Origin: Escherichia coli
GTDB taxonomy: Bacteria > Pseudomonadota > Gammaproteobacteria > Enterobacterales > Enterobacteriaceae
Assembly (NCBI RefSeq): GCF_001677475.2
Contig: NZ_CP015229.1
Strand: one strand, 5' to 3'
DNA length: 64,000 nucleotides
Shown: positions 21,001 through 27,000 of the stretch, piece after piece
Layout: every line of letters begins with the position of its first letter
Numbering within the stretch: position 1 is the first letter of the stretch
Program-made: the position numbers

Positions 21001-24000
21001 GGATTGTTGATCGCTACAACATCCGGCATTCACTGCGCTGCAGTCCCAATGGTGAAAGTCTGCCGGTTGATCCGGCGGCATATCCGGAGGACTGGGATTT
21101 GTTGCTGACGGATGTGCTCCATAAAACATGGCCGCTGGCTTCTGATCCGGATGTGCGCATGCGTCTGATGGCCATGGCGGTGGATACGGGAGGGGAAGCC
21201 GGGGTGACAGATAATGCCTATCGTTTCTGGCGTCGTTGCCGGAGTGACGGACTGGGCAACAGGGTGTTTCTGTTCAAGGGGGATGGTCTTCGCCGTGACA
21301 GGCTGATTAACCGTACCTTCCCGGATAATACCGGCAGAAGTGCCCGCCGTGCCAGAGCCAGTGGCGATGTCGCGCTGTGGCTGGTTCAGACGGATGCGTT
21401 TAAGGACCGTGTAAATAATGCCCTGTGGCGTGACACACCAGGGCCGAACTATATCCACTTTCCCGACTGGCTGGGGCGGTGGTTTTACGATGAGCTGACC
21501 TATGAAGAGCGCGGCAGTGACGGAAAATGGCGAAAACCGGGCAGGGGCGCTAACGAGGCGTTTGACCTGCTGGTGTATGCGGATGCGCTTGCCGTTCTGC
21601 ATGGTTACGAAAAGATCCGCTGGCCCTCCGCACCGGACTGGGCACAGCGGGAAACGTGGCTCGTTTTTCCGCAGTAGCGTTCTGGTGAAACGGCATCCCC
21701 GGAACTGACGGCCGGGGCAGAAAAACGCCGTCGTCGGAAGAAAAAACTGCGGACGGAGCGTGCGGAAGATAATCCATGGATAACATCAGGAGGCTGGTTG
21801 TGAGCACAGAAGAAGCCAGAGAAATGATACAGCGGTACCGTGAAGCGGAAATGGCCGTACTGGAGGGGAAGTCTGTCACCTTCAACGGACAGCAACTGAC
21901 GCTGGAAAGCCTTTCTCAGATCCGCGCCGGACGTCAGGAGTGGGAACGCAGGCTTGCCGCGATGGTGAGCCGCAGGCGGGGAAAACCGGGATTTAAACTG
22001 GCGAGGTTTTAATGGCAATTATTGATGATGTGATAGGCGTGTTCTCTCCAGGCTGGAAAGCGACCAGACTGCGTTCAAGGGCGTTAATCATGGCCTATGA
22101 GGCGGTGAAACCGACCCGGACACATAAAGCCCGGCGTGAAAATCGATCTGCTGATCAACTCAGTAAATATGGCGCGGTTTCCCTGCGGGAGCAGGCCCGT
22201 TTTCTGGATATCAATCATGACCTGGTGATTGGTGTGTTTGACAAGCTTGAAGAGCGGGTGATTGGTGCCAGAGGAATTACTGTGGATCCTCAGCCATTAC
22301 GAAAAAACGGGGAAATGGCGGCAGAGCTGGCTGCGGATATCCGCCGGTTGTGGGCTGAATGGTCCGTGAGTCCCGATGTGACAGGGCAGTATACCCGTCC
22401 CGTGCTTGAGCGTTTACTGCTGCGGACCTGGCTGCGGGATGGTGAAGTGTTTGCGCAGATGGTCAGTGGTGCGGGAAACGGTCTGGAACGGACGGCGGGA
22501 GTGCCATTCTGGCTTGAAGCGATGGAGCCGGATTTTGTTCCCATGCGCAGTGATGAATCCGCCGGGCTGAATCAGGGGGTTTTTCTTGATGAGTGGGGCA
22601 GGCCGAAAAAATATCTGGTTTATAAAAATTATCCGGTCAGCGGCCGGCAGAGTGATACGAAAGAAATCGCCGCCGGAAAAATGATCCACCTGAAGTTCAC
22701 TCGTCGTCTGCATCAGACGCGAGGCTCATCCATGTTATCGGGGGTGCTGATGCGGATCAGTGCCCTTAAGGAGTATGAGGATGCGGAACTGACAGCGGCG
22801 CGTATTGCTGCGGCGCTGGGACTGTATATCCGTAAAGGTGACGGACAGGACTATGAAGATCCGGGGATCAAAGAAACCGAGCGGGAAGTCCATATCACCC
22901 CGGGGATTATTTATGACGATTTGCGCAAGGGCGAGGATATCGGCATGGTCAAATCCGATCGTCCCAATCCCAACCTTGAAACTTTCCGCAACGGCCAGTT
23001 GCGTGCAGTGGCAGCTGGCAGTCGTCTGAGTTTTTCCAGTGCGGCGCGTAACTATAACGGCACCTACAGCGCCCAGCGGCAGGAGCTGGTCGAGTCCACG
23101 GATGGTTACCTGATCCTGCAGGACTGTTTTATTGGCGCGGTAACCCGCCCGGTGTACCGGACATGGCTGAATATGGTGGTTGCGGCAGGTCTGCTGAAAA
23201 TTCCGGCGGATGTGGAGATGAAGACGCTACATAACGCGACGTATTCCGGTCCGGTGATGCCGTGGATTGACCCGGTTAAGGAGGCTGAAGCCTGGCGGAT
23301 ACAGATCCGGGGTGGTGCCGCGACGGAATCCGACTGGATCCGCGCAGGCGGGCGCAACCCGGATGAGGTCAAACGTCGCCGTAAGGCTGAAACTGAGGAA
23401 AACCGCAGGCTGGGGCTGGTCTTTGATACTGACCCCGCTAACGACAAAGGAGGCAACAGTGCCGGAACTGAACAACAGCGTCAGCAGGCCACCGACAGCC
23501 AGCATGAAGAATAAATCCTGGTTCAGGATGCAGGCGGGTGGTCAGGGTGAGGCGGATATTTATATTTATGATGAGATTGGTTTCTGGGGCGTCACCGCGA
23601 AGCAGTTTGTCAGCGATATGAATGCCCTGGGTGATATCACCCACATTAATCTCCACATCAACTCACCGGGTGGCGATGTCTTTGAAGGCATCGCCATTTT
23701 TAATGCCCTGAAAAATCACGGTGCGGCCATTACCGTGTATGTGGATGGCGTTGCCGCCTCGATGGCATCCCTGATTGCGATGGCCGGTGACACGGTCATT
23801 ATGCCGGAAAATGCCTTCATGATGATCCATAAACCCTGGGGGATCAGCGGTGGTGATGCGGAGAAAATGCGCACTTATGCCGAACGTCTGGACAAACTTG
23901 AGTCGGTTATGGTGCCGGTATATGCGCAGAAAACCGGAAAAACTACCGATGAAATTGCCGCCATGCTGGCGGATGAGACCTGGATGTCCGGTGCCGAGTG

Positions 24001-27000
24001 TCTGGCACACGGATTTGCTGACCAGGTGACGCCAGCCGTTAAGGCAATGGCATGTATTCAGTCAACACGTACAGAGGAATTTAAAAAGATGCCGGAATCC
24101 ATCCGAAATATGATCACGCAGCCACACAACAGTGCCCCGCGTGATACCACAGTGACAATCCCTGCACCGGCGGTAACAGAACCATCACCGGTACCGGCAG
24201 TGTCTGATGAGGCGACCATTCGCGCCCGCGTTATGGCTGAGCAGAAAGCCCGCATGTCAGGCATTAACGATCTGTTTGCCATGTTTGGCGGGCGCTATCA
24301 GGCGCTTCAGGCGCAGTGTGTGGCCGATCCTGACTGTTCGCTGGAAATGGCCCGCGAGCGCCTTCTGAATGAAATGGGCAAGGAGTCCTCGCCGACCAAC
24401 AAAAACACACCGGCCCATATTTATGCCGGAAACGGCAATTTTGTGGGAGACGGGATCCGCCAGGCGATGCTGGCCCGTGCCGGATTTGAAAATGTCGAGA
24501 AGGATAATGTCTATAACGGGATGACCCTGCGTGAATGGGCTCGCATGTCACTGACCGAGCGTGGTATTGGGGTGGCCAGTTATAACCCCATGCAGATGGT
24601 CGGGCTGGCGCTGACGCACAGCACCTCTGATTTTGGCAATATTCTGCTGGATGTGTCGAACAAGGGGCTGATCCAGGGCTGGGAGGAATCAGAAGAAACC
24701 TTCCAGAAGTGGACCCGTAAGGGACGCCTGTCAGACTTCAAAACAGCGTATCGCGTGGGGATGGGCGGTTTTGGTTCTCTGCGTCAGGTTCGTGAAGGGG
24801 CGGAGTATAAATACATCACCACCTCAGATCGCAAGGAGACCATTGCTCTGGCCACTTACGGGGAGATTTTCTCCATCACCCGCCAGGCCATTATCAATGA
24901 TGACCTGAATATGCTGGTTGACGTGCCGATGAAGATGGGGCGTGCGGCGAAGGCAACGATTGGTGACCTGGTTTACAAGGTGCTGACGGATAACCCGAAA
25001 CTGTCAGACGGTAAGGCGCTGTTCCATGCCGATCACAAAAATATTGCCACCGGCGGGATCTCCGTTTCCGGACTGGATGCGGCCCGTCAGATGATGCGCC
25101 TGCAGAAAGAAGGCGATCGTGCCCTGAATATCCGCCCGGCCTTCATGCTGGTCCCTGTGGCACTGGAGACGGTGGCGAACCAGACCATCAAATCGGCCAG
25201 TGTGAAAGGGGCGGATGCAAACGCCGGTGTCATTAACCCCATCCAGAACTTTGCCGAAGTAATTGCGGAAGCGCGTCTTGATGCGGCAGATCCGAAAACC
25301 TGGTATCTGGCGGCGGCACAGGGCACCGACACCATTGAAGTGGCCTGGCTCGATGGTGTGGACACGCCCTACATTGACCAGCAGGAAGGTTTCACCACTG
25401 ACGGCATTGCCACAAAAATCCGTATTGATGCCGGAGTGGCACCACTTGACTGGCGCGGGCTGGTGCGTTCGTCGGTGGCCTGATAACCGCGTTATCACAA
25501 TCACTGCCCGAAAGGGCTTTTTTTATGCCTGAAAAACAGCCCCGCAGGGGCTGTCCGGAGAAACAGCATTATGGCGAAAAATTTTGTACAGGACGGTACC
25601 ACCATTGAACTGGTGAATGCCGGAGATCAGACCATCCTGAGCGGTGCTGCGGTGGTGGTCGGCAGTATGGTGGCAGTGGCCATTACCGATATTCCTGCCG
25701 GTGATGCCGGTGACGGTTTTGCCGAAGGCGTGTTCCTGCTGCCCAAACAGTCTGCCGACGATATTCAGGCCGGTGTGGCGGTTTATCTGAAGGACGGGAC
25801 TGTGCAGCCTGCCGCAGACGGTGCAGTGGCGGCGGGAATGGCATGGGAGCATGCGCCGTCAGGCACCGCCACTGTGGCGGTAAAAATCAATGTCTGATCT
25901 GTTTACGCGAATGTGTTGCCGGATGGACGTGGTGACCGTTCGGATGATGGGCAAACAGGCGGAGATTAACGGCGTCGTGTACGACGTGATGCCGGAGGAA
26001 GAGTCCGCGGAGATGGGGGCGCTTTCCGGCAGTCAGTTGTCACTTGTGGTGTTTTCAGCGCAGTACCGGCCGGCCCGCGATGATGTGGTTGTGTTTGACG
26101 GTCGCTCACTGGTGGTGACCCGTTATGACACGTACAACGGTAAACCCCGGATTTTTGTCGAACTGGAATAAGTATGGCGATAAAAGGTCTGGCGCAGGCC
26201 ATGAAAAATCTGGATGCGATTAACCGCCGTGCCGTTCCCCGGGCTGCCGCCACGACGCTTAACCGTGTGGCGGAGTCCATCATCGCGAAAACGGCTTCTT
26301 CTGTTGCCCGTGAACTGGCGGTTCCACGCCGTCTCATCCGTGAGCGTATCCGCCTGCAACGGGCCAGCGCAGACAGGGTTTATGCGAAGGTCATCATCAA
26401 CACCGGTAATCTGCCCGCCATAAAACTGGGGACGGCCAGCGTGCGGCTTTCCCGCAGAAAGCAGCGAAAGAAAGGTGAGCGTTCGGTCACGAAAGGCGGT
26501 GGCAGTGTGCTGATTGTCGGGAAACGGCGGATCCCGAATGCTTTTATTACCCGGCTGGAAAATGGCCGGTGGCATGTGATGCAGCGTATGCCGTGGGCGA
26601 CGTCGTCAACCGGTGTTGACCGTAAGGGCAGGCCAGCGCGTTATCGTCTGCCGATTGAGGTGGTGAAAATACCGACGGCCAGACCGCTGGCGGAAACCTT
26701 TGAGCGCGAACGTGACCGGATGTACCGGGAGAAATTACCGGAACAGATGATGAAAGCCATGGCGTATCAGTTACGTCTCGTTATGAAACGAAAACTGTGA
26801 GGAGGTGGAATGAAACACCGGGAAATACGGGCGGCAGTTCTGTCAGCCCTGAAGGAAAATATTGTTGAGCGGGTGACATGGTTTGACGGGCGACCTGCTT
26901 TTATTGACGAGCTGGAACTTCCGGCAGTGGCGGTCTACCTGACGGATGCGTCGGCAGCTGACGAGTTCGTTGATGAGGGGACCTGGGAGGCGGTACTGCA

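Follow-up and report, generated by a model that had tools for sequence, protein, structure and literature searches.

Does a single gene in a lambdoid prophage of Escherichia coli encode the protease, the scaffold and the shell protein of the phage head, and, if so, how could such a fused gene set the ratio of protease to shell subunits? The question is raised by a long open reading frame (ORF) in a 64,000-nucleotide stretch of DNA from RefSeq assembly GCF_001677475.2, contig NZ_CP015229.1 (the whole stretch is referred to here as the window). We found that the gene is very probably an ordinary member of the Gifsy-2-type family of tripartite capsid genes. In addition, the linker behind its protease domain carries a candidate internal start, from which a protease-less scaffold-capsid protein could be made. 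The features of the gene are as follows.

23504..25483, + strand: ORF from the ATG start, 659 residues; an open frame and the basis of residue numbering throughout
23459..25483, + strand: tripartite capsid gene from its likeliest start (GTG), 674 residues, with ClpP-like protease, scaffold-like middle and major capsid protein
23591..24031, + strand: predicted ClpP-like (S14) prohead protease domain, residues 30-176 (Pfam CLP_protease, E = 1.5e-36)
23759..23761, + strand: codon of the putative catalytic Ser86, invariant in 41/41 homologs; in the GxAASM motif, which aligns with the active-site serine of ClpP
23828..23830, + strand: codon of the putative catalytic His109, invariant in 41/41 homologs; MIHxP motif
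24038..24208, + strand: variable Pro/Thr-rich interdomain linker, residues 179-235, least conserved and with the most indels; low predicted local distance difference test score (pLDDT)
24209..24583, + strand: helical central domain, residues 236 to about 360, from model helices; presumed scaffold (delta-like)
24608..25471, + strand: HK97-fold major capsid protein domain (Mu gpT-like), residues 369-656, from Pfam, a PDB profile search and Foldseek

The + strand frame was uninterrupted from the ATG at 23504 to the stop codon at 25481-25483 (659 codons), as the first-pass annotation had described it; a likelier start, the GTG at 23459, is discussed below. The encoded protein matched the NCBIfam model NF045540 (ClpP-like prohead protease/major capsid protein fusion protein) with 994.4 bits against a curated cutoff of 475, and the alignment ran from end to end (residues 17-657 against positions 2-651 of the 652-position model). 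It showed every sequence-based feature of this family, namely the score, a ClpP-fold N-terminus with its Ser and His, an in-frame HK97-fold C-terminus and the gene order. Domain annotation with Pfam and NCBIfam placed a protease and a capsid protein in the same polypeptide, as had been proposed.

The N-terminal domain also matched NF045542 ('head maturation protease, ClpP-related') with 221 bits (cutoff, 120), and it aligned to solved ClpP structures with a best E value of 4e-17 in a single-sequence search of the PDB. That search returned ClpP chains only, and capsid relatives surfaced just with a profile of the C-terminal part. Conservation was assessed in an alignment of 41 homologs with 35 to 77% identity. 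Besides the invariant Ser86 and His109, the residue aligned with the catalytic Asp of ClpP (residue 158) was Glu or Asp in 38 of these homologs, and the acidic catalytic partner is probably Glu158. The Pfam search gave no Peptidase_S49 match, and TIGR00706 SppA_dom reached only 27.6 bits with a cutoff of 155. The protease is predicted to belong to an S14-like family, in contrast to lambda gpC, which is S49. The earlier description of a 'ClpP/S49-like' N-terminus holds at the superfamily level, and its S49 part was not borne out at the family level.

At the C-terminus, Pfam identified Phage_capsid_4 (residues 369-656, E = 6.9e-56) and, more weakly, Mu-like_gpT (PF10124, E = 6e-10). The C-terminal profile retrieved the 'Mu GpT domain' capsid of JBD30 from the PDB (8rkc/8rkx, E = 1.2e-12) as well as 9jod (E = 1.3e-10). 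Residues 310-659 modelled alone gave a pLDDT of 87.4 and a predicted template modelling score (pTM) of 0.82, and a Foldseek search with this model found 361 PDB matches at E ≤ 0.001. All 50 of the matches listed were HK97-fold shell proteins, including HK97 gp5 (2ft1, 1ohg, and 3e8k; probability, 1.00), encapsulins, T5, SaPI1 and JBD30. Structure prediction, which had been suggested as a check on the C-terminal HK97 fold, gave a positive answer in the match to HK97 gp5.

A full-length AlphaFold model, built on the alignment of 41 homologs, had a mean pLDDT of 84. Two stretches were disordered in the model, residues 206-233 in the linker (pLDDT < 50) and residues 298-309. The region with the lowest conservation and the most indels along the alignment (residues 181-240) matched the layout of the model. 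The central domain was modelled as helices at residues 236-259, 266-274, 280-292, 313-326, and 342-351, followed by a mixed alpha/beta domain that includes a 29-residue helix (residues 468-496). Residues 236 to about 360 matched no Pfam family and are presumed to be the scaffold, as the cases of Gifsy-2, HK97 and lambda suggest. The hints to the N-terminus of the mature capsid protein disagreed, with model disorder at residues 298-309 and Pfam and PDB alignments starting at about residues 365-370. The domain order, the conservation of the catalytic residues, the HK97 fold and the conservation of the cement gene are all read from sequence and structure prediction.

Next, we compared the gene with its relatives. 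The gene of phage CP-1639 showed 97.5% DNA identity and 99.2% protein identity over all 659 residues, and the genes of the long-tailed Stx2a/Stx1 phages (Stx2_95, VT1-Sakai, 1720a-02, and ASU11) were 95 to 97% identical. Of 5,426 complete E. coli genomes, 2,197 had a match to the 8-kb head region, and in 495 the match covered 80% or more of the region. A database clustered at 90% contained at least 3,962 relatives at E ≤ 1e-5. In a set clustered at 50% identity, 137 of the 150 best-matching representatives had 620 to 800 residues, and most matched end to end with 36 to 60% identity. The Gifsy-2 ortholog (STM1034.3n, NC_010393; 696 residues) was 60% identical over its full length and is followed by a 107-residue gene and lambda-homologous tail genes, and the protein of Pseudomonas phage BR133a was 57% identical to the window protein over its full length.

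The fused arrangement is already known and very common, and it is not new. The 'tripartite capsid gene' of Gifsy-2 (Effantin et al. 2010) is cited in passages of PMC12315714 and PMC8538268, which describe fused protease and coat genes and a capsid with trimers at the 3-fold axes. A three-in-one arrangement was also concluded in 2021 for gp5 of the Pseudomonas phage MD8 group (PMC8508860); the searched text of that article mentioned neither Gifsy-2 nor an internal start. According to a passage in a capsid-prediction study, no HK97-fold major capsid protein was obtained for Gifsy-2 (PMC8814770). The window gene is another copy of a well-documented head module, and mosaic module exchange among lambdoid phages is textbook knowledge. 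A small practical value lies in the naming of these fusion proteins, which databases label inconsistently ('Clp protease ClpP', 'scaffold protein', 'head maturation protease', or 'major capsid protein') and which automated capsid finders can miss. In CP-1639 and the Stx phages, the labels vary among protease/scaffold protein, major capsid protein and Clp protease-like protein; RefSeq gives homologs the NF045540 name.

Separate ORFs were observed in one relative, L172 (GCA_000755365.1, contig BBMQ01000056.1, positions 1857-3832), with a protease of 201 residues and a scaffold-capsid protein of 443 residues. The two ORFs are in different frames and 38 nt apart, the capsid part is 51% identical, and the nearby gene order looks scrambled. 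This may be a natural split version or a frameshifted or decayed remnant. A stand-alone scaffold-capsid relative, P0213, lies on a 1.5-kb contig that ends just upstream of the gene.

Two alternative explanations of the long ORF were considered. It could be an artefact of this strain, in which a frameshift or the loss of a stop codon joined neighbouring protease and capsid genes as the prophage decayed. The prophage does show decay elsewhere (a nonsense codon in the terminase gene and an insertion), and L172 has its ClpP and capsid genes apart in different frames. However, functional phages (CP-1639-like Stx phages, LLS, mEp460, and Gifsy-2) have the ORF in one piece as well, as do thousands of protein clusters and 137 of the 150 best representatives at 50% identity, and the identity to the CP-1639 protein extends across the whole length. 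A merger was rejected because the conservation is too broad, and we regard it as next to impossible. The second alternative is that the N-terminal domain has no part in head maturation and works on cellular substrates like the ATP-dependent ClpP of a host; its similarity to ClpP is clear, and many database names read 'ATP-dependent Clp protease proteolytic subunit'. Yet the models of genuine ClpP all scored far under their cutoffs (for example, TIGR00493 with 64 against 309), while the phage-specific NF045542 passed its own, and in every relative the domain forms part of a capsid fusion encoded between the portal and decoration genes. A host-type ClpP is very improbable and was rejected because of the scores of the ClpP models.

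With the tripartite gene as the best description of the locus, we turn to the candidate internal start in its linker.

24074..24078, + strand: GAGGA, SD (Shine-Dalgarno)-like motif, 10 nt upstream of the internal ATG
24089..24091, + strand: in-frame ATG (Met196), candidate start of a 464-residue protease-less scaffold-capsid product

Met196 was kept in all 69 unique loci of the clade to which the window gene belongs. AGGA was present at -14 to -11 in 62 of 62 loci listed (of the 69), though the residues that it encodes differ (EE, ED, KD, QE, or GD), and the first codon of the motif always ends in G across the different amino acids. By its SD, Met196 ranked second of 31 internal ATGs in the window and first to fifth of about 25 across the 69 clade loci. 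More distant homologs have a linker Met of their own. In the distant-homolog alignment, a Met occupied one column in 26 of 41 sequences within an otherwise unalignable linker and followed residues rich in E, G and K; in an alignment of 18 distant members it was invariant (18/18). The clade of the window gene is without that Met and has Met196 instead. The conserved linker Met shifts by clade, from residue 196 in one to about residues 215-235 in the other, and the SD accompanies it. At the DNA level, nine distant genes carried AGGAGG, GAGGA or AAGGA 5 to 11 nt before the linker ATG, which ranked first or second for anti-SD pairing among 16 to 29 internal in-frame ATGs in all nine.

The pattern was then tested family-wide with 121 unique genes, for which single-linkage clustering at 70% identity gave 39 clusters. 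An in-frame ATG was present in the linker in all 39 clusters and was preceded by an SD-like motif in 38. It had the best SD among the internal ATGs in 20 clusters, where 3.1 are expected by chance, and ranked among the top two in 33. Only about 5% of codon positions, in the linker as in the whole gene, had an SD of this quality ahead of them. A conserved in-frame candidate start codon with a predicted ribosome-binding site (RBS) past the protease domain, which is the sequence mark of nested protease/scaffold genes of the lambda C/Nu3 or Mu I/Z type, is present here. We consider it likely, at about an even chance, that the SD and ATG at 24074-24091 also yield the candidate protease-less scaffold-capsid protein. 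Internal initiation at a conserved site is the simplest interpretation of the pattern, and it would also be consistent with an origin from separate protease and delta-major capsid protein genes whose boundary stop codon was lost.

Gifsy-2, HK97 and lambda serve as models for how the products might act together. A T=7 procapsid would be built from the C-terminal domains on the lambda-type portal and would enclose the N-terminal parts, and the middle region would serve as the equivalent of the HK97 delta domain or the lambda Nu3 scaffold. Once assembly has concentrated it, the tethered protease would remove everything upstream of the capsid domain, with a cut between about residues 300 and 370. 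DNA packaging would expand the shell, and trimers of the downstream cement protein would bind and stabilise it. For Gifsy-2, the 2010 work of Effantin et al. is said to have found self-processing to a mature capsid protein of about 300 residues and a T=7 capsid with decoration trimers. As a refinement of this scheme, the internal start would supply the protease-less scaffold-capsid protein and a minority of full-length protein would deliver the protease, in parallel to the nested genes lambda C/Nu3 and Mu I/Z and to retroviral Gag versus Gag-Pol. If real, such a start would explain how a fused gene sets the ratio of protease to shell subunits, and this nested-start hypothesis is the only part of the present analysis that might repay work. 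Our literature searches, whose coverage did not extend to the 2010 Gifsy-2 paper, found no internal start or nested product described for such genes. The sequence data raise the possibility, held tentatively and at somewhat less than an even chance, that the internal start is functional and undescribed, so that the shell would be mostly protease-less product and the full-length protein a minority, Gag-Pol-like protease carrier.

Comparable weight, again a little short of even, has to be given to the possibility that only the full-length polypeptide is made and that all of the approximately 415 shell subunits carry protease and scaffold, as is usually assumed for Gifsy-2. In that case, the SD and ATG of the linker would not serve initiation; they would be left over from an ancestral gene boundary, mark a pause in translation or belong to a peptide motif. 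No annotation in the records examined lists a nested product. The internal SD in the clade of the window gene is moderate (-6.0 kcal/mol) and distant, at 10 nt from the ATG. Many members have a Pro after the linker Met, and some protein-level constraint is therefore possible. By our own estimate, 415 copies of about 40 kDa would fill about 40 to 50% of a lambda-sized procapsid, which is crowded but possible. Other points also weigh against a functional internal start: one of the 39 clusters is without an SD before its linker ATG, and internal SD-like motifs may stem from codon composition or translational pausing. As to the wider scheme, every assembly step is drawn from relatives, and the window copy may never make particles, given its terminase stop and the insertion sequence (IS) between L and K. 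On the other hand, synthesis of the full-length protein alone does not readily account for a Met that changes its position between clades with an SD that always travels along, for the rank of this SD across the 39 clusters, or for synonymous third positions fixed as G across different amino acids. A neutral relic would not be expected to persist in an otherwise unalignable linker.

A nested product from an internal start would bring the gene closer to lambda, with which it was compared along with other known systems. In lambda, the C protease and the Nu3 scaffold share a frame and Nu3 is made from an internal start, and the SD and ATG of the window linker suggest the same. The position in the gene cluster, between a lambda-family portal gene and Z-U-V, is also alike, and both systems use a trimeric decoration protein. 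However, lambda gpC is an S49 protease and the predicted window protease is ClpP/S14-like. The lambda capsid protein E has a separate gene, whereas the capsid domain of the window is fused and the separate E gene of a lambda head is missing. Lambda D precedes E, whereas the cement gene of the window follows the capsid and is assigned to a different Pfam family, Phage_cement_2. In sequence, the head modules of lambda and the window are not homologous.

As is presumed for the window gene, HK97 has its scaffold function at the N-terminus of an HK97-fold capsid protein, and a phage protease cuts it off. Its gp4 protease is encoded by a separate gene and belongs to another family, whereas the window protease is ClpP-like and fused. 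HK97 has a covalent chainmail and no decoration protein, in contrast to the cement gene of the window; the capsid fold alone is common to both, and HK97 gp5 shows about 12% sequence identity to the window protein. Mu resembles the window in its capsid domain, which is gpT-like (PF10124; JBD30 capsid at 1e-12), but it differs in having a protease that is not of the ClpP type and a separate T gene. The Mu I/Z scaffold is also made from an internal start inside the protease gene. The closest likeness is to Gifsy-2, with the same three-part architecture and NCBIfam family, a lambda-type terminase and portal upstream, and a decoration gene of about 107 residues and tail genes downstream. The window copy differs in its linker sequence and is an E. 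coli prophage ortholog with a truncated terminase and an IS. CP-1639 and the Stx phages show essentially no difference in this gene, of which the window holds a further copy. MD8 and BR133a have the same three-in-one capsid gene and differ in the host genus (Pseudomonas).

The genes adjoining the fusion gene are as follows.

22012..23514, + strand: lambda-family portal gene (PF05136, E = 2e-80; TIGR01539, 441 bits, cutoff 173)
25571..25897, + strand: cement/decoration protein gene, 108 residues (Pfam Phage_cement_2, E = 5.8e-19)
25890..26171, + strand: small 93-residue gene of the Gifsy-2 family between the head and tail modules, presumed to act in head-tail joining (PF13856, E = 6.8e-15)

Upstream lie genes for a DUF1441 protein, a gpA-type large terminase (with both gpA Pfam domains), a 78-residue ORF and the portal protein. 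Downstream, the cement gene and the Gifsy-2-family gene are followed by lambda-type Z, U, V, G, T, H, M, L, K, I, and J, where V is the tail tube and H is the tape measure with the lambda C-terminal domain. These gpA, portal and Z-to-J genes bear out the first-pass view of a head-module replacement, here of C, Nu3, D and E, in a lambda-type terminase and tail context. The downstream gene, which had been called decoration-like, is assigned to the cement family by Pfam; a comparison of its protein with PDB sequences gave no match, and its cement identity comes from Pfam alone. A Phage_cement_2 gene was located directly 3' of the fusion gene in nine of nine distant homologs, and a lambda-family portal gene was recorded upstream in six. 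The order of portal gene, fusion gene and small gene of matching size was also seen in Gifsy-2, LLS and CP-1639. In LLS, the equivalent of the gene at 25890..26171 is annotated 'putative function: head-tail joining'.

No second capsid protein was found among the window ORFs scanned, which comprised nearly all of those with at least 200 residues and otherwise encoded RecT, exonuclease VIII, replication and regulatory proteins, IS and tail fibre proteins, and chromosomal genes. The objection that the C-terminal part might not be a capsid protein, with a separate capsid gene elsewhere, finds no support because the scanned ORFs hold no other capsid protein; the capsid domain itself was confirmed.

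The 659-residue ORF overlaps the end of the portal gene by 11 nt, and the frame contains no stop codon at 23459-25480 and is open farther upstream to 23267. A GTG at 23459, within the 3' end of the portal gene and 45 nt upstream of the ATG at 23504, is preceded by AAAGGAGG at a spacing of 5 nt (RBS and GTG, window positions 23446-23461). The predicted pairing with the 3' end of 16S rRNA was -11.6 kcal/mol for the GTG compared with -2.5 for the ATG. The closest homologs from Salmonella, Citrobacter and Raoultella start at the equivalent upstream site and are without a Met at the ATG position, and the annotation of phage LLS also uses the longer start. The starts of distant homologs, 2 to 5 residues ahead of a conserved W[YF]xxxA motif, agree with ATG 23504 instead, and public annotations are divided between the two (656/659 and 671/674 residues). 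We consider the GTG at 23459, with a product of 674 residues, the more likely start because of its strong RBS and the close homologs that start there. The choice does not affect the domain content.

The prophage itself shows signs of decay. The large terminase ORF (19680-21677) stops at a TAG at 21675-21677, where the 97.9%-identical prophage of E. coli N96 has GAG. The premature stop removes the last 42 of 707 residues; the Gifsy-2 terminase has 712. The C-terminus of lambda gpA binds the prohead, and the window prophage, having lost this part of its terminase, may be unable to package DNA. Compared with the N96 prophage, the window prophage also has a 2.4-kb insertion (32477-34890), which separates tail genes L and K. 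The insertion contains two ORFs on the - strand (33295-34794 and 32543-33298), which encode an IstB_IS21 ATPase and a 499-residue protein with a Mu-transposase C-terminal domain. From these two proteins, the insertion is assigned to the IS21 family and is a further sign of prophage decay.

Other features of the prophage were also observed. A 277-residue ORF in its early or regulatory part (11658-12491, + strand) had no Pfam match at E ≤ 0.001. A 241-residue ORF at 15404-16129 (+ strand) encodes a Pertussis_S1/Scabin-like ADP-ribosyltransferase domain (E = 5e-15), and the adjoining 160-residue ORF at 16140-16622 (+ strand) has a weak Pertussis_S2S3 match (E = 2e-4) below the cutoff. By these domain matches, the pair at 15404-16622 resembles an ArtAB-like AB5 toxin. 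It is located in the late region of the prophage, and upstream of it lies an ORF (14354-15016) for a Q-like antiterminator. Positions 44415-64000 of the window are chromosomal and encode a porin, pyruvate-flavodoxin oxidoreductase, a 2-hydroxyacid dehydrogenase, YdbH and an AraC-type regulator, as well as aldehyde dehydrogenases, copper amine oxidase, a PaaZ-like protein and PaaA. As this right third of the window is chromosomal, the right end of the prophage is placed near 43.4-44.4 kb, beside the porin gene.

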